NCBI GenBank assembly: GCA_040389365.1
Contig: JAZKAB010000003.1
Span: 7,357-71,356, forward strand
DNA length: 64,000 nt
Direction of reading: 5' to 3'
Origin: Patescibacteria group bacterium
GTDB lineage: Bacteria; Patescibacteriota; Minisyncoccia; Phycocordibacterales; UBA9973
Below are positions 10,338 through 63,713 of the stretch, one piece after another. The first letter of the stretch is position 1; every line of letters starts with the position of its first letter. Under the pieces are notes generated by a model. That model had not been told where the DNA came from. It saw only the letters and a program-made list of their open reading frames with translations, and made no database searches. Both the position numbers and the translations under genes were made by a program.

Positions 10338-10946
10338 ATGGTAAAAGGAAACTATAGAGTTATTTCAGTATTTTCGCGTTCCGAAAAGCTTTTTGACGAC
10401 TATCCCTATCGGAAGTTTTATATGATTGACGAGGGGAACGTTGAAATAAGAGGCGTTGAAGAGTTTGCGCAGTATGTGGAGGCCGACTTCAGTGAGTTGT
10501 ACTTTAGGAATCGCCTTATTCCCACTACTCGAAAGGTAGTCACTATTTCTCTTGATAAGGAAAGTAGCGATACCGGCATGCAACTGTATCAAGGAAGGGA
10601 AAGAGGCATCGATTCAGTTCCGGTGTATGATACTGTTCCTCGTAACATTGATTATGATGGTATAGTAGTAGACCTGATGCTATCTCGGTCTGGCCGGCAT
10701 CGTCATGCAACTGAAAAATATCAGCCTCATGGGTTGGGAATCGTTGCATGGGCAGTCTTGCATAACATCCCTGTTGGGCTTGTGTATGAGGATGAGGGTA
10801 ATGCGGATTTTAGAAGATCAAACTTCTGGATTGAATCAGTATTGGATACGCTCGCAACCCATTCCATGTGCTATGGCAATAGAATTCCTTCAGGAAACAT
10901 TAATGATGTGTGCCGCGAAATGAGAGAGCTGCTTACGCAGCAATAA
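10338..10946 (+). CDS. hypothetical protein, 202 aa (monocistronic)
   Basis: Own promoter and a strong terminator. No recognisable motif. Confidence 0.5.
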   Translation: MVKGNYRVISVFSRSEKLFDDYPYRKFYMIDEGNVEIRGVEEFAQYVEADFSELYFRNRLIPTTRKVVTISLDKESSDTGMQLYQGRERGIDSVPVYDTVPRNIDYDGIVVDLMLSRSGRHRHATEKYQPHGLGIVAWAVLHNIPVGLVYEDEGNADFRRSNFWIESVLDTLATHSMCYGNRIPSGNINDVCREMRELLTQQ

Positions 10947-10966
10947 AGCCTTCGGGCTTTTTTTAT
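10946..10966 (+). terminator. rho-independent terminator AAGCC-TTCG-GGCTT + T-run
   Basis: Perfect hairpin followed by TTTTTT directly after the stop codon. Confidence 0.7.
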
Positions 10967-10985
10967 TGTATGTTAGTATCCTGAT

Positions 10986-12041
10986 GTGGAGAAGAAAAAG
11001 AAAATTTTTGTCGGGATCTCAGGCGGCGTAGACAGTTCAGTGTCTGCATATTTGCTGCAGCAGCAAGGGTATGACGTTCAGGGTATTTTCGTGAAGACAT
11101 GGGCGCCAGACTGGGTGCCGTGCACATGGGTAGATGAAAAGAGGGATGCAATGCGCATTTGTGCGGCATTAGATATCCCTTTTCATTTTCTCGATGCGAC
11201 AGAAGAATACAAGCATGGCGTCGCTGACTATATGATCAGCGAGTATCGCGCGGGCAGAACGCCCAACCCAGATGTCTTGTGCAACAAGATCATCAAGTTT
11301 GGGGCGATGTGGCAGTATGCCAAGGTGCAGGGTGCTGATGGTATCGCAACGGGGCACTATGCACAGGTACATGACCGAGTGCTGATAAAAGGCGCTGATG
11401 GGGCAAAAGATCAGGCGTATTTCTTATGGATGATAGAAAAGGAATTGTTGGGCCAGATTATCTTTCCGATTGGCCACCTGCAGAAGTCCGAGGTGCGTGC
11501 CATTGCAGAAAAGGCAGGGCTATTTACCGCAACAAAGAAAGACAGTCAGGGCATCTGCTTCTTGGGAGAAATCGACATGAAAGATTTTCTGCGGCACTAT
11601 ATTGATCAGAAGCCCGGCCCTGTATTGAATGAAGAAGGCAAGACGGTGGGCGAGCATGATGGCGTCTGGTTCTATACATTAGGAGAGCGCCACGGTTTCC
11701 GCATTACCGAGCACAATGTTCATAGGGAGCCGTGTTATATCGTCGGGAAAGACATAGAAAACAATACCCTTACGGTTGCGAAGGCAGCTCAAAAGACTGA
11801 GGCAAAAGAGGGAAGCATGACAGTGTCATTGCGAGACGTTAATTGGTTTAGCAATCCAGATATTTCCAAGAAATACACTGGCCAGATTAGATATCATGGG
11901 CAGCTGCTGCCAGTATCATTCGTTAATGACTACACTGTTGAGATATTTACTACAGAACAAATGCCATTAGGGCAGTCATTGGTTGTCTATGACGGAGATA
12001 TTGTAATAGGAGGCGGTGTCATTGACTTTTTGGTTATTTAG
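10986..12041 (+). CDS. mnmA: tRNA 2-thiouridylase MnmA
   Basis: PP-loop FVGISGGVDSSV and conserved Cys residues. GTG start per the ORF track. Confidence 0.85.
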   Translation: MEKKKKIFVGISGGVDSSVSAYLLQQQGYDVQGIFVKTWAPDWVPCTWVDEKRDAMRICAALDIPFHFLDATEEYKHGVADYMISEYRAGRTPNPDVLCNKIIKFGAMWQYAKVQGADGIATGHYAQVHDRVLIKGADGAKDQAYFLWMIEKELLGQIIFPIGHLQKSEVRAIAEKAGLFTATKKDSQGICFLGEIDMKDFLRHYIDQKPGPVLNEEGKTVGEHDGVWFYTLGERHGFRITEHNVHREPCYIVGKDIENNTLTVAKAAQKTEAKEGSMTVSLRDVNWFSNPDISKKYTGQIRYHGQLLPVSFVNDYTVEIFTTEQMPLGQSLVVYDGDIVIGGGVIDFLVI

Positions 12042-12076
12042 TGATATAGTGTGCCAAATATTTAAAACTAAAGAAC

Positions 12077-12280
12077 ATGAAAAAATACTTATTTGTAGCA
12101 GCAATATTGCTGCTCATAAGCGGTACCTTTACAGGGTGCGCTTGCTATGGATATAACAGCAATGCCCACGGATATGAAATGTGGCCGCAAAACAATGGCC
12201 AATATTATTACCCGTACGCAACCCAGGCTGCAGCTGCTGCCGGATTGGGCGGCGGCTATTATCCGTCCCCACGGTATTAA
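12077..12280 (+). CDS. small secreted Tyr/Gly/Asn-rich lipoprotein-like peptide, 67 aa
   Basis: Signal peptide MKKYLFVAAILLLISGTFTGC with a lipobox-like FTGC. Mature ~44-aa peptide CACYGYNSNAHGY...GQYYYPY...GGGYYPSPRY. Confidence 0.4.
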   Translation: MKKYLFVAAILLLISGTFTGCACYGYNSNAHGYEMWPQNNGQYYYPYATQAAAAAGLGGGYYPSPRY

Positions 12281-23422: not shown

Positions 23423-23431
23423 AGACAAACA

Positions 23432-23458
23432 GCATCCCGAAAGGGATGTTTTTGTTTT
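23432..23458 (+). terminator. rho-independent terminator CATCCC-GAAA-GGGATG + T-run
   Basis: Hairpin plus TTTTTGTTTT after rpsI. Confidence 0.65.
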
Positions 23459-23490
23459 ATGGAGAGGTATAGTAGAATCGTTGTAAAATT

Positions 23491-23688
23491 ATGGAAAAGA
23501 TCAGAGACCCCTACGCAAGGAACCAGGGGCCGCTTGTCCGCATACTCTATGCCTGTACCGAAGAGGAGTGCAGCGCTATCAAGATACGATACCAGCCACT
23601 TTCTGGCGAAAGGAATAAGGACTTTCGGCAATATTGCCCTGAATGCAGGATGATAACGCAGCACGTACAGCATATTCAGCTTCATTAG
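23491..23688 (+). CDS. small zinc-ribbon protein, possibly a divergent ribosomal protein bL33
   Basis: Cys pairs ACTEEEC...YCPECRMITQH resemble zinc-binding bL33 (ACTECG...KKYCPRCxxHTxHxE). An alternative overlapping frame (23459..23653) codes a basic peptide, so coding-frame certainty is low. Confidence 0.3.
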   Translation: MEKIRDPYARNQGPLVRILYACTEEECSAIKIRYQPLSGERNKDFRQYCPECRMITQHVQHIQLH

Positions 23689-23719
23689 TACTGGAGCTTT
23701 TTATATTGACTTTTTTATA

Positions 23720-23747
23720 TTGACACCACGCTTTTATGCTGTAGAGT
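23720..23747 (+). promoter_or_regulatory. promoter TTGACA-16-TAGAGT, with the -35 inside a 13-nt tandem repeat
   Basis: TTTTTATATTGAC occurs twice in tandem at 23698..23724. The second copy supplies TTGACA. Confidence 0.35.
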
Positions 23748-23785
23748 TATGAAAACAATCTCTTTTACACTAAACCCTCAGTATC

Positions 23786-24460
23786 ATGAAAAAGACACTC
23801 ATTGCAGGACTTGTAACCCTGTTCGTATTTTGGGCACATGTATATATGCTCAATACCTTTAATCCAAAAATTGCTTCTGCAACGGCAAGCTTTAACGGCC
23901 TCGGAATGTTTGAACTCACACATGAAAAATCAGTAATCATGTTTGATAACGTGCACCCGCTGCCTTTTATCGGAGAGTGGCAAAAGTATCAAAGTGTTAG
24001 CTTTGTCTCAACGAGCAGCAATATCGCATTCAATATGGGTGACACTATTAGAAATGATGATGCCACGATGTATGCATTTTGCCTTGCGTTCCTGTTCAGT
24101 ATTCTATTAGCCGCAGGGATCCTCCTATCCTGGTTTTTATCTAAAGGCAAGATAATAAGCAAGCAGTGCGACAGCAGGGATTTTGCACATCTTTATTATG
24201 TCGAGCTTGAGCTTGAAGCAGTGCTAAAAAGAAATCCTCTTTTGCGTGCCGAGCTTGCCTGGTTGCCTCTCTTGCTGGGCTTCATGTTTGTTCAGCCATG
24301 GATTTATGGAAACCAAAACTTTTGGCGTTCGTATGTAAGCTGGATATACATTTCAGGCATTATTGTCTACGGCATCCGAAGCCTGTTTCTGCATGCTTTG
24401 GTTAAAACCATTCAGAACTCGCGTGATCAGCACTCTGCTGATACTAAAGCCCTTTCCTAA
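23786..24460 (+). CDS. hypothetical polytopic membrane protein, 224 aa
   Basis: 4-5 predicted TM helices. AT-rich codon usage. Confidence 0.45.
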   Translation: MKKTLIAGLVTLFVFWAHVYMLNTFNPKIASATASFNGLGMFELTHEKSVIMFDNVHPLPFIGEWQKYQSVSFVSTSSNIAFNMGDTIRNDDATMYAFCLAFLFSILLAAGILLSWFLSKGKIISKQCDSRDFAHLYYVELELEAVLKRNPLLRAELAWLPLLLGFMFVQPWIYGNQNFWRSYVSWIYISGIIVYGIRSLFLHALVKTIQNSRDQHSADTKALS

Positions 24461-24475
24461 TAGGGGCTTTTTTTA
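24447..24475 (+). terminator. rho-independent terminator AAGCCCTTT..AGGGGCTTTTTTT
   Basis: Hairpin overlapping the stop codon, followed by a T-run. Confidence 0.6.
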
Positions 24476-24502
24476 TGCCTGATTTTTTGTATAATCAATG
24501 AT

Positions 24503-36918: not shown

Positions 36919-38745
36919 ATGGAAGATGAAATAGAAGTTAACGATAATTTAAGAGATACTTTTTCAACCGCTAAAAGAGCGGTTGGTTTTGCATACAAGA
37001 ATGAAAAAAGACTCGTAGTATTAACCTTTACATTCGCAATTATCTTAGCGGCTGTTGTCTATCTCCAGGCAACTTCATTTTCCAGTATTGTTAATGAAAT
37101 AGTAAGGATTAAGGAAAATAACCTGGGTATAACCAGAGACCTTATCAATCAGGCTATTCTTCTTGGGGCAACTTTTCTTGTTCCAGCAATTTTGCAAAAC
37201 TTACAGTCTCGGTTTGTAAACGAACTTTCAACAAGGCTAGGAACCCATATCGAAATGCTGCAAATTGATGCGTATTCGGCATTGGATATTGGAACTGTTG
37301 AAGGAACAGAATTTCAGACAAAGCTGCAGCGAGCAAGTAAGTGGGGAACAGGCTCAATTTGGAATGCAGCATATTATGTCCGAATGATCGCTGCAGATAT
37401 CGCAGGCTTTGTTGCATCAGGTTTAGTGTTGTTTTTCATCAATCCATATCTTGTTATCTTGGCGATTGTCGGCGCGTTGCCGTACTATTTTGTTGAAAAT
37501 ATCTATTGCCTGAAGCTATTTCTTCTGTACCATACCCATACAGACGAGAGCCGCATTGGAGGAAATAGAATGCAGTTTTTTAAAGACCCAAAAAAGCTTG
37601 TTGAGATATTGCTTTTTAACATCAAAGGATTGTTTCGAAAGCAAATCAAGGATAATTACGAAATATATGATAACAGCGTTATTAAGGTAGGGCGTCAGCA
37701 GTCCCTTGCGACATTTGGAGCAGATTTTCTTCAGATGGCATGTCTTTTCGCCGCAATTATTTTTGTCACGGTTCAAACTATTAACGGCAATTTGCTCATC
37801 GGATCATTATTTCTAGCCTTTACCGCATACAGAGGGTTTGTAAGTACAAGCCAAGGATTCTTTCAGGATTTTTCAAAGCTAGAAGAGCAGTCACGCTATG
37901 CAAAGCGATGGTTTGATATTTTTGATATTAAGTCAAAAGTTGTTTCAAAGCCTAACGCTGTAAAGCCCGCATGGCTTGTACCGCCACGCATTGAGCTAGA
38001 CAATGTGTCATTTGCCTATCCAGAAAGTGACAAGACAATTCTAAAGAATATTTCAATGACCATTGAAAGCGGAGAAAAGCTTGCAATTGTTGGGCAGAAC
38101 GGTGCAGGAAAGACTACGCTTATTAAGCTTTTATGCAGAGTATATGAACCAACAGAGGGTGCAATTCTAATTGACGGCATTAACCTAAAAGACATCGACC
38201 TAGATTATTGGAGAGAATACCTCGGCGTGCTATTCCAAGATTTCTCTAATTACAATATGACTATTAGGGAGTCTATTGCAATTGCAAAGCCAGATGAGCC
38301 GATTGATGATGAAAAGGTAGTGCTTGCAGCAGAGATGACCGATGCTGACGAATTTATTAAAGAGTTTCCAAACAAATATAACCAGCTTGTATGGAAAGGA
38401 TTTAAGGATGGCGTAGAGCTTTCAAAAGGTCAGTTTCAGCGCATGGCAGTGGCGCGTATCTTCTATAGAGATGCGGCAGTTTCAATTCTCGATGAGCCAA
38501 CATCAGCGATCGATGCTGTTGCAGAGGAAAAAATATTTGACGTGCTTGAGAAGAAAATGGCGGGCAAGACTGTAGTGCTTATTTCTCACCGCTTTAGCAC
38601 TGTTAAGAACGCTGACAAGATTGCGGTTATTGAGCATGGCGAATTGAAAGAAGTCGGGACCCATAAGTCCTTGATGGCCAAGAAAGGCAGATATGAAGAG
38701 CTTTTCAGCATGCAGGCTAACAAGTATTTAGAAACAGAAGCATAG
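36919..38745 (+). CDS. ABC exporter, fused permease-ATPase (608 aa)
   Basis: 6-TM N-terminal half; Walker A GQNGAGKTT, signature LSKGQFQRMAVAR, and Walker B ILDEPTSAID. Confidence 0.85.
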   Translation: MEDEIEVNDNLRDTFSTAKRAVGFAYKNEKRLVVLTFTFAIILAAVVYLQATSFSSIVNEIVRIKENNLGITRDLINQAILLGATFLVPAILQNLQSRFVNELSTRLGTHIEMLQIDAYSALDIGTVEGTEFQTKLQRASKWGTGSIWNAAYYVRMIAADIAGFVASGLVLFFINPYLVILAIVGALPYYFVENIYCLKLFLLYHTHTDESRIGGNRMQFFKDPKKLVEILLFNIKGLFRKQIKDNYEIYDNSVIKVGRQQSLATFGADFLQMACLFAAIIFVTVQTINGNLLIGSLFLAFTAYRGFVSTSQGFFQDFSKLEEQSRYAKRWFDIFDIKSKVVSKPNAVKPAWLVPPRIELDNVSFAYPESDKTILKNISMTIESGEKLAIVGQNGAGKTTLIKLLCRVYEPTEGAILIDGINLKDIDLDYWREYLGVLFQDFSNYNMTIRESIAIAKPDEPIDDEKVVLAAEMTDADEFIKEFPNKYNQLVWKGFKDGVELSKGQFQRMAVARIFYRDAAVSILDEPTSAIDAVAEEKIFDVLEKKMAGKTVVLISHRFSTVKNADKIAVIEHGELKEVGTHKSLMAKKGRYEELFSMQANKYLETEA

Positions 38746-38747
38746 GA

Positions 38748-39095
38748 TTGTCTGTCATGCTGAACTTTAAAGAAGGTACAAAGAAAGGAGCGGTTAAGTA
38801 TTGGCATGCATATGACGGTGATAAAAGAATAGGATATGCGTACATTATTGAAAGTCAGGATCCTAATTTGGGAAAATATTTTTTAATAAATGTGTTTATG
38901 AATAAAACAAGTCAGAGAAAGGGATACGGTTCTCAATTGTTCAGCCGCATAGCTATTCTTAGTGGTTTAAATATGCTGTATGCAAAAAGCAGCAAATCAA
39001 ATACAGGATCTTATAAGGCTGCGTTAAAAGCAGGTTATAGTGAGATTATAAAGCACGCGTTTAAGCAGCGAGTGATGATATGGAAGAAAAACTAA
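38748..39095 (+). CDS. GNAT-like acetyltransferase fragment (C-terminal half only), 115 aa
   Basis: Motif A-like QRKGYGSQLF. Paralogous to the downstream frameshifted copy (shared AYDGDKxxGY). AT-rich. Confidence 0.4.
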   Translation: MSVMLNFKEGTKKGAVKYWHAYDGDKRIGYAYIIESQDPNLGKYFLINVFMNKTSQRKGYGSQLFSRIAILSGLNMLYAKSSKSNTGSYKAALKAGYSEIIKHAFKQRVMIWKKN

Positions 39096-39106
39096 TACCT
39101 ATGATT

Positions 39107-39742
39107 ATAAAAAGGCTAGACAGTCTTGAAAAAATAGAGAATGTAATTGAACAGATGAAACCTGTTGCAACTTTCATGTCGAATCCAGTAATTATTGATA
39201 ATTTCTTATGCTTAAAGATGGTGATATAAGAAGGAAATATTATTCTGCGGAACGTAATAATATTCAGCTGACCATACGTGATTTTTGCGACAAAGATACA
39301 GAAAAATTAGAATTATTTTGGAAGGAGTGGTCAGAGTATAAATCAACTACAAATGAAAAATTTGTCTCACATACTAAAAATGACCAACGCTTTTTTGATT
39401 GAAATTATTCAAATCATTTTTTTTGGAAAGTGTGCCTATGATGGTGACAAGCTGGTAGGGTACACAATTGGAATTAAGAGTGAAGACGGATTGTGCCTCG
39501 GTGCTTTTAATAAGTGTCTGCGTGGGTATACACAATTAGGATTACAGCTTTTTATAGAAAGAATTAAGCAGGCAAAAATGTTAGGTTTCAAAAGAATTTC
39601 TATTGCAATTGTCAACAATGATTTTAAGAAACAATTTAAGAAAAGCGGTGAATATATCCCGATATATGGATATGAACTATATAGAGATGATGATTTTAAA
39701 ACGCTAAGTCCTAATGGCTATACGTCTGTATTGATAAGATAG
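39107..39742 (+). pseudogene. frameshifted GNAT-like acetyltransferase gene (three overlapping frame pieces)
   Basis: Pieces 39107..39238, 39208..39402 and 39353..39742 together would give a ~210-aa GNAT. The frame changes coincide with T6/T8 homopolymer runs (cattttttttgg). Confidence 0.4.
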
Positions 39743-39818
39743 AGCGATCGTCTTTTAATCAAGAATACACATATTTGATTTTATTTAAATATGTGCTATA
39801 ATAATAAAAAATTAAAAG

Positions 39819-40286
39819 ATGAATACAATAGAAATTATTAACAAAGCAGTTCTAACTGAACAGGTGCTTCTACATGGAAGCCCTAAGGTTATAGATGAAA
39901 TTCATCCTCATTATGCTGATGATGAGATGGCAGTTTGCGCTACCCCTTACTCTGAAATCGCAATCTTCATGGCAATTATTAATTCATGCAGACCGGGTAA
40001 TTGTGGTTTTAAATCCACCATTACATCGAAAAAATGTTTTGTGGAATTCATGATTTGCGACCGCATAATTGCTTCATTGCTTTCAAAAGAAGTGGTGGGG
40101 TATGTATATGCGCTTGATTCGCGTGGATTTAGCCTGTGGCGGGGATTTGAATACCGTTCATATGAGCCGCTATACTCGTTGCAAAGATTTACAGTCAAAA
40201 AGGAAAATCTTCCATTTTATCCAATTTTAGGACAGAACACTTATACTGTTACCCTGAAGAGAGAAATGGCAGCTATGTTTAACTAA
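39819..40286 (+). CDS. hypothetical protein, 155 aa (AT-rich islet)
   Basis: Intact ORF with low-GC codon usage. No motif. Confidence 0.4.
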   Translation: MNTIEIINKAVLTEQVLLHGSPKVIDEIHPHYADDEMAVCATPYSEIAIFMAIINSCRPGNCGFKSTITSKKCFVEFMICDRIIASLLSKEVVGYVYALDSRGFSLWRGFEYRSYEPLYSLQRFTVKKENLPFYPILGQNTYTVTLKREMAAMFN

Positions 40287-60008: not shown

Positions 60009-60036
60009 TTGACAAAAAGCTCTTATAGAATAGTAT
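60009..60036 (+). promoter_or_regulatory. promoter TTGACA-16-TAGTAT for the arginine kinase gene
   Basis: Consensus -35 and TAnnnT -10, ~30 nt upstream of the ATG. Confidence 0.4.
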
Positions 60037-60066
60037 TATTTTGAAATCCATATTAAACTGTTCATT

Positions 60067-61080
60067 ATGATTGAAATTGTAGAAGAAACGATGCTTATGA
60101 AAAAGCATTGCACTGAAGAAGTGCAGGAAGAATTAAAAGATGTAGTCACCCCTCATGGGTGGACGCTGGAAAAGGCTATTCAGTCAGGAATTGATAATCC
60201 TGACTCAAGCATTGGCGTGTATGCAGGGGATCCTGAATCGTATGATCAGCTTGCACCGTTATTTGACCCTATTATTAAGGAGTACCACAAGTACGACATG
60301 AGCGGTCACAAAAGTGATTTTTCACTTGAAGGGCTGAGTGTTGAAAACCTGGATCCGGAAGGCAAGTATGTAGTATCTACGCGCATTCGCGTAGGAAGAA
60401 ACTTTGCAAAGTTTGCTTTTCCTTCAGCTATTTCTACAGAAGACCGAGAGGCTTTGGAGAAAGAGATTGTTGCTGTTCTTGAACAGCTTCCAGGCGAGTT
60501 AAAAGGCCGTTACATTCCATTGGAAGGCATGTCTCCATCTGACACCGACCAAATGATCACGGATCATTTCTTGTTTAAGCAGGGAGATCGCTTCTTGGAA
60601 AGTGCGGGCGTTAATCGCGATTGGCCAAAAAATCGCGGTATCTTCTTTTCAGAAAACAAGAAATTTCTTGTATGGGTTTCTGAAGAAGATAGCATGCGCA
60701 TCATTAGCATGCAGCAGGGTGCTGACATTGCAGAGGTATTCATGCGATTGAAGACAGCGCTTGATTTTATCAATGAGCACATTCAGTTTGCATTTGATTC
60801 AGTTCGAGGGTATTACACGACATGTCCTACCAATCTCGGAACTGCAATGAGAGCTTCAGTGCACATCAAGATTCCTAAGTTCTCTAACCGAGAGAACTTC
60901 AAGGCAATTTGCGGAACGCTCGGCTTGTCTATTCGCGGGATTCATGGAGAACATTCTGAATCAAGCGATGGCATTTACGACATTTCAAACAAGCGCCGTT
61001 TGGGCATTTCTGAAAGAGAAATTTACGAGCAGCTATACGCTGGCGTAAAGAAGCTTATTGAGATCGAATCTTCGCTGTAA
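60067..61080 (+). CDS. phosphagen (arginine) kinase, animal-type ATP:guanido phosphotransferase, 337 aa
   Basis: CPTNLGT active-site signature. NEEDxxRIISMQ-like SEEDSMRIISMQ, DHFLFKQGDRFL, GEHSESSDGIYDISNKRRLG and an N-terminal guanidino-specificity region (SIGVYAGDPESY..LFDPIIKEYH) align to arthropod arginine kinase. This is a full two-domain AK, not a McsB-type protein arginine kinase. Confidence 0.85.
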   Translation: MIEIVEETMLMKKHCTEEVQEELKDVVTPHGWTLEKAIQSGIDNPDSSIGVYAGDPESYDQLAPLFDPIIKEYHKYDMSGHKSDFSLEGLSVENLDPEGKYVVSTRIRVGRNFAKFAFPSAISTEDREALEKEIVAVLEQLPGELKGRYIPLEGMSPSDTDQMITDHFLFKQGDRFLESAGVNRDWPKNRGIFFSENKKFLVWVSEEDSMRIISMQQGADIAEVFMRLKTALDFINEHIQFAFDSVRGYYTTCPTNLGTAMRASVHIKIPKFSNRENFKAICGTLGLSIRGIHGEHSESSDGIYDISNKRRLGISEREIYEQLYAGVKKLIEIESSL

Positions 61081-61091
61081 TTAAAAAAATA

Positions 61092-61120
61092 AAACCCGTC
61101 CTTAAAAGGCGGGTTTTTTA
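61092..61120. terminator. bidirectional terminator AAAACCCGTCCTTAAAAGGCGGGTTTTTT
   Basis: Hairpin with A-run and T-run between convergent genes. Confidence 0.6.
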
Positions 61121-61121
61121 T

Positions 61122-61637
61122 TTACACTAGCATGGGAACTATTCGATAGAGCTCTTCATAAAATGATAATTTTTCAAAATTAAGTATCTTGATGAACTCT
61201 TCCCACATGTGCTCAATGGCAAACTGAATATTCTTTTGCCGATAGCTATTCTTCCGGTCATGCTTAGTGCACTCAGCGGCTACGTCGGAACAGAACTTAA
61301 GGATATCAATGTAGCCTTCTTTCGGATTCCAAATTTTTGCATGCATAGAAATATCTACGGTAAACAGTTCGCCGAGCTTCAGAATATTAACCATAATATG
61401 GCCTGAGGCTACTATAAGCGGGTACTGCACATCGGGCAGTATGTCGTACAGGACTTTTTCTGATTCTGTAAGAAACTCATACATTTTTTGATATACCTGC
61501 AATAAACAATGCTTTGCGATAAAAATAGTTTTTTCCTCATCGCTGAGCTTCCCTAGCTGAGGGTAATGCTCTTCCGTAAACAAGTAATGAGTTGCAATAT
61601 AGTCCTTTGCTTCTTCAAGAGTGTTGATATGCTCCAT
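61122..61637 (-). CDS. hypothetical protein, 171 aa (AT-rich)
   Basis: Intact ORF with low GC. No motif. Confidence 0.4.
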   Translation of the reverse strand: MEHINTLEEAKDYIATHYLFTEEHYPQLGKLSDEEKTIFIAKHCLLQVYQKMYEFLTESEKVLYDILPDVQYPLIVASGHIMVNILKLGELFTVDISMHAKIWNPKEGYIDILKFCSDVAAECTKHDRKNSYRQKNIQFAIEHMWEEFIKILNFEKLSFYEELYRIVPMLV

Positions 61638-61725
61638 ATTTATATTGTAATGATTTTCTTTAATCTATAGTATTTTAAAAGACTGTCAATAGTTTTCTAG
61701 TGATTATGTACGCTATACTCACCCT

Positions 61726-62206: not shown

Positions 62207-62235
62207 AAAAGGGCATACTTAAAAGTATGCCCTTT
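62207..62235. terminator. bidirectional terminator AAAAGGGCATACTTAAAAGTATGCCCTTT
   Basis: Perfect hairpin between convergent ppiB and the ECF sigma gene. Confidence 0.65.
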
Positions 62236-62791
62236 GTACGTACGGGGTCATTTTAATAATGCCCAAGCGAATTCTGGTTTTAACAGTATTGACATTAACG
62301 CCCATCGCCTCAGCAATCTCCTTGTCCCTCATGCCTTTATAGACGCGCAGGCTTAAAGAATCGCGAAAGACCGGATCGAGCTTGCGAATGCAGGCTGCCA
62401 CATGCTCCTCGCGCTGCTTTTCCTGAAGCTGGAGCTCTGGATCAGTATCGCTCCATAATGCAGGATGCATCCAGGAGTCTTTCTCGAGATCCTCAACATT
62501 TAACCCTTGCTCGTGCATTTCTCTCCGCATGTTAATCGCGCGACGGTAATTGGTTCTCAAGATCCATCCGATAAATTTCCCCGACTCTTCATACGAGCCA
62601 TTTTTAAGGGCTAAAAAGATAGCCACTAGGGTGTCTTGCGCAACGTCTTCTGCAAGCCTGCGGCATTTTACTACATTGAAGGCGCTAGCCTTTAGGATGC
62701 TGCAATACCGTTCTGAAATAACATTGAATGCGTTGTTGTCGCCAGAGCAAAACGCTCGGACAAGCTGGTCGTCGGTTAGGTTGCTTTTCAT
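62219..62791 (-). CDS. ECF-type sigma-70 family factor
   Basis: Region 2 (FIGWILRTNYRRAIN) and region 4 (EIAEAMGVNVNTVKTRIRLG). Confidence 0.8.
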   Translation of the reverse strand: MKSNLTDDQLVRAFCSGDNNAFNVISERYCSILKASAFNVVKCRRLAEDVAQDTLVAIFLALKNGSYEESGKFIGWILRTNYRRAINMRREMHEQGLNVEDLEKDSWMHPALWSDTDPELQLQEKQREEHVAACIRKLDPVFRDSLSLRVYKGMRDKEIAEAMGVNVNTVKTRIRLGIIKMTPYVQRAYF

Positions 62792-62856: not shown

Positions 62857-63111
62857 ATGAAAAAGCTTTGGTTCAAGCGCAAGACATACGGCTGGGGATG
62901 GACGCCCGCAACAGCAGAAGGCTGGCTTGTCTTGGCTATCTATATGGTAAGCCTACTACTGATACTGTATGTATTTAGAGCATATGGTCTTTCTTCTGTA
63001 CTTACAACCATCTTATTCTTAACCCTTTCGGCTGGATTGATAGCTGTAACAGCTGTCACAGGAGAAAAGCCCCGCTGGCAATGGGGAAATAAAGGAAGGG
63101 AAGATTTTTAA
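62857..63111 (+). CDS. small 2-TM membrane protein, 84 aa
   Basis: Two hydrophobic helices. TATACT 6 nt upstream of the ATG. Confidence 0.4.
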   Translation: MKKLWFKRKTYGWGWTPATAEGWLVLAIYMVSLLLILYVFRAYGLSSVLTTILFLTLSAGLIAVTAVTGEKPRWQWGNKGREDF

Positions 63112-63134: not shown

Positions 63135-63713
63135 ATGCTCGAATCACCCATCATGCATCTTTCTGATGAAATGCTTGTCATTGAGGCCAAGAAAGATCAG
63201 CAGCACTTCGCGGTGCTGGTTGATCGCTATGTGCCCAAGCTGACGCACTATATACGCCGCCGCAGTGCTGCGACGCCGCATGATATTGATGATTTGCTGC
63301 AGAATATTTTTATAAAGGTGTGGCGCAATATCAATGAGTATGACACCTCGTTGCTATTTTCTTCGTGGATATACCGCATTGCGCATAATGAAATGATTGA
63401 CTGGTACCGGCGAGAGAAGCGGCGCTCAACATTGTCGCTTGACGACGAGGCGCAGAACATCGTCTCGAAGCTCTTTGCAGAAGAAGACTTAGTCGCGCAA
63501 TTTAGCAGCCAGGAGCAGAGAGCGCAAATCAAGGAAGCCCTGGGTACGCTCGACGACAAGTACAAGGAAATACTGCTGCTGCGATTCTTTGAAGACAAGT
63601 CGTACGAGGAGATAGGGGACATTCTCCGCATCCCGCCCGGCACGGTGGCAGTACGGATCAATCGCGCAAAGAAGCAATTACAAAAAAGCCTTACAGACTA
63701 TGGAACACACTAA
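63135..63713 (+). CDS. ECF-type sigma-70 family factor
   Basis: Region 2 (LLQNIFIKVWRNINEYD..FSSWIYRIAHNEMIDWYRR) and region 4 (YEEIGDILRIPPGTVAVRINRAKKQL). Confidence 0.85.
   Translation: MLESPIMHLSDEMLVIEAKKDQQHFAVLVDRYVPKLTHYIRRRSAATPHDIDDLLQNIFIKVWRNINEYDTSLLFSSWIYRIAHNEMIDWYRREKRRSTLSLDDEAQNIVSKLFAEEDLVAQFSSQEQRAQIKEALGTLDDKYKEILLLRFFEDKSYEEIGDILRIPPGTVAVRINRAKKQLQKSLTDYGTH

Follow-up and report, generated by a model that had tools for sequence, protein, structure and literature searches.

Near one end of a 64,000-nucleotide stretch of contig JAZKAB010000003.1 from a Patescibacteria group bacterium (hereafter the window) lies a phosphagen kinase gene of 337 codons (60067-61080, forward strand), recognised from the list of open reading frames (ORFs), from matches to Pfam and the Protein Data Bank (PDB) and from conserved residues. 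It is preceded by a promoter and leader of its own and followed by a terminator that it has in common with a convergent orphan gene of 171 amino acids (61122-61637, reverse strand). The kinase gene probably encodes a functional arginine kinase (EC 2.7.3.3) of a Paceibacteria-like clade of Patescibacteria, vertically inherited and likely to maintain a phosphoarginine buffer for ATP. The identical protein at NCBI is entered as 'MAG: phosphagen kinase [Patescibacteria group bacterium]', in agreement with the small-genome bacterial host supposed in the initial annotation of this DNA.

The arginine kinase gene and its transcription signals

The initial annotation described the 337-aa product as an animal-type arginine kinase, and all four motifs that it quoted are present (CPTNLGT at residues 253-259, DHFLFKQGDRFL at 166-177, SEEDSMRIISMQ at 205-216 and GEHSESSDGIYDISNKRRLG at 294-313), along with both Pfam domains of the family, the N-terminal alpha-helical domain PF02807 (3.3e-25, residues 9-71) and the C-terminal catalytic domain PF00217 (1.8e-71, residues 130-336). 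The best single-domain matches in PDB are arginine kinases (1e-90 to 1e-104 per domain), comprising each domain of the two-domain enzyme of Anthopleura (approximately 1e-98 to 1e-104) and the enzymes of shrimp, Limulus and other arthropods (1e-99 to 1e-90); taurocyamine kinase (1e-80 per domain) and creatine kinases (approximately 1e-75) are weaker. The protein shares approximately 48-51% of its residues with shrimp arginine kinase and with either Anthopleura domain, and in comparisons with the invertebrate enzymes (Limulus, Litopenaeus, Anthopleura; 1M15, 4BG4, 4RF6) this identity extends over the full length, which implies the same fold. The Patescibacteria protein differs from the arthropod enzymes in having some 16 fewer residues at the N-terminus (its residue 9 corresponds to chain residue 25), and from the invertebrate enzymes in the substitutions G64S and R312H (the latter as in Anthopleura) and in being the product of a bacterial gene under a sigma-70 promoter.

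That promoter (60009-60036, forward strand), found by a consensus scan with 10/12 matches, consists of a -35 element TTGACA, a 16-nt spacer and a -10 element TAGTAT. A perfect match to TTGACA-N16-TAnnAT occurs only once in the 64 kb, 0.10 occurrences being expected by chance. The same -35 element, spacing and -10 element (TAGTATTAT), together with an AT-rich leader, precede the kinase gene in at least 10 other loci where the upstream genes are unrelated, and the homology upstream of the gene starts sharply at ATTGACA. The leader (60037-60066, forward strand; AAAT.TATATTAAA.T..GTTC.TTATG) is conserved across loci. Over promoter and leader together, the window shows 73-84% identity to five further loci, compared with 15-26% just upstream of the -35 element and approximately 21-32% at synonymous sites of the kinase coding region; promoter and leader are therefore under selection. 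Their conservation also identifies the ATG at 60067, conserved as a start in relatives, as the start codon.

In the equivalents found in loci L001-L016, the leader is conserved almost base for base. No recognisable Shine-Dalgarno sequence is present in the window (60037-60066) or in these equivalents, and a search of the leader against Rfam returned no family. The leader could be a translation-initiation element or a regulatory element.

Downstream of the kinase gene, a scan identified a bidirectional intrinsic terminator (61091-61117) made up of an A-tract, a G+C stem of 10 pairs and a T-tract, with a predicted folding energy of -15.8 kcal/mol, which serves both convergent genes. An equivalent hairpin is located 3' of the kinase gene in 14 of the 14 related loci that were folded, and the sub-threshold Rfam matches near the terminator all fall on this hairpin. 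The kinase gene is thus provided with its own promoter and terminator, as the initial annotation had it, and is apparently transcribed as an independent single-gene unit from what looks like a strong promoter. The further statement that the region is bracketed by terminators is not correct: a single bidirectional terminator separates the two convergent genes, the next one (62208-62235) lies beyond the cyclophilin gene, and there is none between the stop codon of the upstream MFS transporter gene (59999) and the kinase promoter (60009).

Active site and substrate

Residues were mapped from shrimp arginine kinase, whose sequence was taken from an HMMER alignment and aligned with 101 single-domain homologues, using the shrimp numbering of catalytic residues, which we take to be that of the Limulus reference structure. 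The specificity loop maps without a gap (D62 to D46, S63 to S47, G64 to S48, V65 to I49, G66 to G50, I67 to V51 and Y68 to Y52), followed by R126 to R108, R193 to R175, E225 to E207, R229 to R211, C271 to C253 and R280 to R262, and towards the C-terminus by H284 to H266, R309 to R290, E314 to E295 and R330 to R311. Cys271, Glu225, Glu314, the five phosphate-binding arginines and the arginine-type loop of the invertebrate enzymes are therefore all matched. The two catalytic glutamates (E207 and E295) and R108, R211, R262, R290 and R311 are invariant in 81 members of the Patescibacteria clade described below, and the reactive cysteine C253 of CPTNLGT is found in 80 of the 81, the remaining one having a gap at this position. 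The initial annotation had proposed to check whether key catalytic residues, such as this cysteine, survive closer alignment; C253 and all catalytic residues do.

The loop is of full length, with no gap relative to the arginine kinases of shrimp and Anthopleura, and the residues of the D62-R193 link are present (D46 and R175); the loop of taurocyamine kinase differs and is one residue shorter owing to a deletion. The equivalents of S63, Y68, D62 and R193 do not vary among the 81 clade members; at loop positions that do vary in these closest homologues, S48, I49 and V51 are the residues most often found. The two departures, G64 to Ser and R312 to His, also occur in domain 2 of the Anthopleura enzyme, which is deposited as an arginine kinase. 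With the active-site residues in place, a gap-free loop and departures that recur in the Anthopleura enzyme, arginine is the best-supported candidate substrate.

A few loop residues determine which substrate an enzyme of this family accepts, and a phosphagen kinase acting physiologically on some other, or an undescribed, guanidino compound might be read from the replacement of G64 by Ser (Asn in 18 clade members), of V65 by Ile and of R312 by His, and from the match to taurocyamine kinase, which is still 1e-80 per domain. Such a substrate is improbable, however, given the full-length, gap-free loop with its invariant S63, Y68, D62 and R193 equivalents, the occurrence of the same Ser64 and His312 in Anthopleura domain 2, the fact that the top single-domain PDB matches are all arginine kinases, and a sister clade that holds the arginine kinases of Myxococcus, the M. 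xanthus enzyme being described in the literature.

Phylogeny and descent

A neighbour-joining (NJ) tree built from 335 kinase domains (100 bootstraps) places the window's arginine kinase in a clade that comprises 82 sequence clusters, itself included (97% bootstrap), and in which every taxon label is Patescibacteria. The clade holds every hit labelled Patescibacteria, Paceibacterota or Nomurabacteria, except for one Paceibacterota-labelled member of a smaller group. The arginine kinases of Myxococcota form a clade of their own (80%), sister to that of Patescibacteria (joint support 90%), so that the query is placed outside the Myxococcota ('cluster B') clade and not nested in it. More than 80 further clusters, defined at 90% identity, are 69-84% identical to the query, the few that are named being Paceibacterota, Pacebacteria and Nomurabacteria; three genome loci from GTDB that carry the gene are labelled Paceibacterota, Nomurabacteria and (uncultured) Saccharibacteria. 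The next-closest sequences are from Myxococcota (Archangium and Vitiosangium, 63-67%; Myxococcus and Corallococcus, 56-59%), and eukaryotic sequences reach approximately 50% at most. Among representatives clustered at 50% identity, which served only to supply outgroup diversity, no listed match exceeds 56% identity to the query, the clade having no close representative there.

A second, smaller group (P0097, P0113, P0117 and P0118), of which one member has the label Paceibacterota, shows 56-60% identity to the query. It is placed outside the 82-member clade and suggests that Patescibacteria possess more than one arginine kinase lineage.

The Myxococcota enzymes (Myxococcus xanthus Ark) resemble the query in being single-copy proteins of approximately 340 amino acids with the same two domains and catalytic residues (56-67% identity), but their hosts are large-genome, respiring, social bacteria, whereas the host of the query is an ultra-small member of Patescibacteria, and the 171-aa partner gene was found only in Patescibacteria-type contexts. 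In the scheme of Suzuki 2013 and Fraga 2019, which a review summarises (PMC11492440), they constitute 'cluster B'. The arginine kinases of Desulfotalea psychrophila, Sulfurovum, Moritella and Oceanithermus (clusters A and B') are likewise canonical and patchily distributed (PMC11492440, PMC6429109); their hosts are Proteobacteria and Oceanithermus, and none of them stands beside the query clade in the tree, where they are not singled out among the unnamed representatives.

The locus L010 belongs to a genome closely related to that of the window and provides a measure of divergence. Between the two, the arginine kinase (85% amino acid identity, dN/dS 0.059, dS 1.75) has diverged about as the core proteins have: DnaK (91%, dN/dS 0.067, dS 1.07), RpoA (92%, dN/dS 0.047, dS 1.12), AspRS (84%, dN/dS 0.066, dS 1.62), GrpE (76%, dN/dS 0.078, dS 2.15) and the ribosomal proteins (87-96% amino acid identity). 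Its divergence being within the range of core genes, the kinase gene was already present in the common ancestor of the two genomes. By these substitution rates the kinase is under purifying selection of housekeeping strength, and it is apparently a long-resident gene, inherited vertically within its Patescibacteria lineage and not recently imported.

Base composition gives no sign of recent import either. Mean GC of the window is 47.4%; the kinase gene has a GC of 0.435 and a GC3 of 0.432 (z = -1.1 among 63 window ORFs), and the 171-aa gene has a GC3 of 0.448 (z = -0.9), its low overall GC being due to a GC2 of 0.23, that is, to amino acid composition. Several ribosomal protein genes in the window have a GC3 equal to or lower than that of the kinase gene. 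Across the loci of the Patescibacteria clade, GC3 of the kinase gene ranges from 0.22 to 0.50 and broadly tracks the GC of the flanks (0.34-0.50), with deviations in both directions. The visibly AT-richer islet of the initial annotation is not confirmed, the z values being only -1.1 and -0.9, and the true low-GC stretch of the window is elsewhere.

That stretch (36919-40286, GC3 z -1.8 to -2.8) includes an ABC transporter gene (36919-38745, GC 0.40, GC3 z -1.8) and two orphan ORFs with no Pfam match (39353-39742, GC 0.32, z -2.8; 39819-40286, GC 0.38, z -2.4). Recent acquisition is more plausible for this stretch than for the arginine kinase region.

That the kinase gene was recently acquired by horizontal transfer from an animal or some other eukaryote, as part of an islet of foreign composition, is very unlikely. 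Such an acquisition would fit the drop in GC to 0.40-0.43 at 60-62 kb from 0.52 immediately upstream, the organisation as a cassette with its own promoter and terminator at varying positions in related genomes, and the patchy occurrence of phosphagen kinases in bacteria (PMC6429109). However, GC3 departs by only about one standard deviation and the GC of the gene broadly tracks that of the genome; the nearest relatives are some 80 clusters at 70-85% identity whose labels are all Patescibacteria, followed by Myxococcota, with eukaryotes at only about 50%; and the kinase has diverged from its L010 counterpart to the same extent as core genes have. Moreover, no relative of the kinase was found in viral contigs, and no direct or inverted repeats flank the cassette. 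Of the islet idea, what stands is a self-contained cassette of the kinase gene and the 171-aa gene that occupies varying chromosomal positions; the foreign composition does not stand.

The protein-arginine kinase McsB of Bacillota has a homologous PF00217 catalytic domain in common with the query. McsB lacks the N-terminal PF02807 domain, has a C-terminal domain for dimerisation and phosphoarginine binding, and acts with the partners McsA and ClpC. An McsB-like enzyme that marks proteins for degradation or regulates a repressor is suggested by the name 'protein-arginine kinase' that JGI pipelines give to several homologues, by matches of the catalytic domain to the McsB models of NCBIfam (1e-22 to 1e-44), and by the location of the kinase gene near grpE, dnaK and dnaJ in some relatives, but can hardly be credited here. 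The best of the McsB models scores 152.6 bits against a cut-off of 385, and the others 80-143 bits against cut-offs of 381-679. The McsB chains in PDB match at approximately 1e-30 and only over the catalytic residues 94-336, compared with approximately 1e-100 for arginine kinases. PF02807, which carries the specificity loop for free arginine, is present. No mcsA, clpC or ctsR gene adjoins the kinase gene in the loci examined, the neighbours in the window being the MFS transporter, the 171-aa orphan and the cyclophilin. The sub-threshold McsB scores and the ranking of PDB matches thus identify the protein as a canonical phosphagen kinase, as opposed to a protein-arginine kinase, in line with the initial annotation.

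The surroundings of the kinase gene are those of a bacterial chromosome. The window encodes a PriA-like protein, MreB, RRF, an RseP-like protease, MltG/YceG, MnmA and AlaRS; the cluster rpsM-rpsK-rpsD-rpoA-rplM-rpsI; GrpE, DnaK, DnaJ, AspRS, CysRS, CorA, DnaB, two more aminoacyl-tRNA synthetases and ScpA; and MraY, FtsW, MurG, ABC exporters, HlyD-like proteins, the MFS transporter, the cyclophilin and two ECF-type sigma factors. No eukaryote-like gene was found among them, and the flanks that the initial annotation had wished to see checked consist entirely of ordinary bacterial genes, so eukaryotic contamination or a chimeric assembly, to which the approximately 50% identity to animal arginine kinases might have pointed, can be set aside for an intronless ORF with a bacterial promoter, an intrinsic terminator and bacterial genes on both sides that recurs in assemblies independent of this one, where the contigs reach 405-458 kb and the gene lies beside rpsI, aspS and rmuC.

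Proposed role and the 171-aa partner

Enzymes of the arginine kinase family reversibly transfer the gamma-phosphate of ATP to a guanidino nitrogen of free L-arginine; phosphoarginine builds up at times of abundant ATP and serves to convert ADP back to ATP at times of shortage. Patescibacteria, or the candidate phyla radiation (CPR), have tiny genomes, usually no respiratory chain and a dependence on hosts, and are thought to be largely fermentative. By its sequence, the enzyme of the window would catalyse ATP + L-arginine <-> ADP + N-phospho-L-arginine, and its most likely role would be to maintain a phosphoarginine reserve that buffers what is probably a weak, intermittent ATP supply in a small host-dependent cell.

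Several points weigh against this interpretation. The energy-buffer role is an analogy borrowed from eukaryotic physiology, and arginine specificity is suggested by loop residues and by characterised relatives that are no more than approximately 67% identical, while the position of G64 is either Ser or Asn across the clade. No genes of arginine metabolism or transport are found within the 64-kb window. The NJ tree is distance-based and its deeper nodes lack resolution, and most members of the clade carry no taxon label, so that the statement that all are Patescibacteria depends on those members that have a label and on gene contexts.

The characterised arginine kinases of bacteria include those of Desulfotalea psychrophila, Myxococcus xanthus and Sulfurovum (PMC11492440), and that of Myxococcus matters in forming fruiting bodies and spores according to the same review. 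Reviews describe the bacterial carriers as rare and patchy, naming almost exclusively Proteobacteria, with Oceanithermus as the single further genus, and the origin of the bacterial enzymes, ancient or acquired from eukaryotes, is debated (PMC11492440, PMC6429109). A full-text search of the literature found nothing linking arginine kinase or phosphagens to Patescibacteria, the candidate phyla radiation or Parcubacteria; database annotation already names proteins of the clade phosphagen kinase or arginine kinase. The window thus contains a known enzyme in a new phylum-level home, with the conserved promoter and leader and the orphan neighbour as unexplained extras. Little is understood of energy management in CPR bacteria, and an arginine kinase that is conserved and has a strong promoter points to a possible phosphoarginine reserve in some of them, which is otherwise associated with animal muscle and the cilia of protists. 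The existence in another phylum of a deep clade, some 80 clusters in size and sister to the arginine kinases of Myxococcota, adds weight to a long bacterial history of the enzyme and provides new test material for the debate over ancient versus acquired origin.

The 171-aa orphan gene, which is convergent to the kinase gene, encodes a protein predicted to be all-alpha and has a promoter of its own (61662-61689, reverse strand; TTGACA-16-TAGATT, 10/12 matches in the scan). A TTGAC-type -35 element and a TA..(A/G)T-type -10 element occur at the same position upstream of its homologue in the other four genomes in which the context can be read (these five being the window, L004, L010, L017/L028 and L030). 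Sequence and profile searches of Pfam, NCBIfam and PDB gave nothing significant (best PDB match 1yqh, E 0.12), and PHROGs gave weak isolated matches, the best being to phrog_176 'tail terminator' (E 0.003) by one member only. A profile search among 5.8 billion clusters found only eight members of the family, with a length of 171-172 amino acids except for one member cut off at a contig end. The gene is under purifying selection (pN 0.36 versus pS 0.88), and H43, C44, E60, K61, H99 and W103 are invariant. Two AlphaFold2 models are all-helical and of low confidence (pLDDT 51 and 44.5).

In all five genomes the 171-aa gene is tail-to-tail with the kinase gene at a distance of 33-41 nt, yet the pair occupies four settings: between rpsI and grpE (L010 and L017/L028); between the MFS transporter gene and the cyclophilin gene (the window); flanked on the kinase side by a gene of the exo/endonuclease-phosphatase family and on the partner side by an 80-aa gene together with a DEAD-box helicase gene (L030); and among hypothetical genes (L004). 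Constant pairing in four settings identifies the cassette as a stable unit that has relocated. In one sub-lineage, then, the two genes are always paired and have changed position together. Elsewhere the kinase gene often occurs without the 171-aa gene (e.g. L001, L002, L003, L006, L008 and L012-L016). In relatives it directly follows rpsI or aspS, and in the more distant L006 and L012 it stands alone after aspS in the same grpE-dnaK-dnaJ-aspS neighbourhood. No remnant of the kinase gene was found at the rpsI-grpE junction of the window (23423-24502).

At this junction, where close relatives carry the cassette, the window has a 224-aa orphan ORF (23786-24460) with no homologue in L010. This ORF is equipped with a TTGACA-16-TAGAGT promoter of its own and is flanked by terminators; upstream of it is a short Cys-rich ORF (approximately 23490-23687). 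In L030, an IS200/IS605-type Y1 transposase gene (1220-1858) is located about 2 kb from the cassette; it is not adjacent, none was seen in the other loci, and it could be relevant to movement of the cassette.

The kinase and the orphan, with its invariant His-Cys, Glu-Lys, His and Trp, might together constitute a dedicated two-component phosphoarginine module of a single Patescibacteria sub-lineage, moving as a unit, in which the orphan regulates the kinase or acts on phosphoarginine (a phosphoarginine-dependent switch or a hydrolase, for instance) and which stores energy between feedings of host-dependent cells, but this is doubtful, and participation of the 171-aa protein in arginine kinase function is speculative.

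Two other arrangements were observed near arginine kinase genes. Next to the cyclophilin gene of the window, two ECF-type sigma factor genes (62219-62791, reverse strand; 63135-63713, forward strand) flank a small ORF (62857-63111) with a sequence resembling that of a two-pass membrane protein, which may represent a sigma/anti-sigma arrangement. In L006, whose arginine kinase is a member of the Patescibacteria clade, a CBASS-like pair (10652-12177; a CD-NTase C-terminal domain protein and a Cap15-type effector) is located about 4 kb downstream of the kinase gene on a 405-kb contig.

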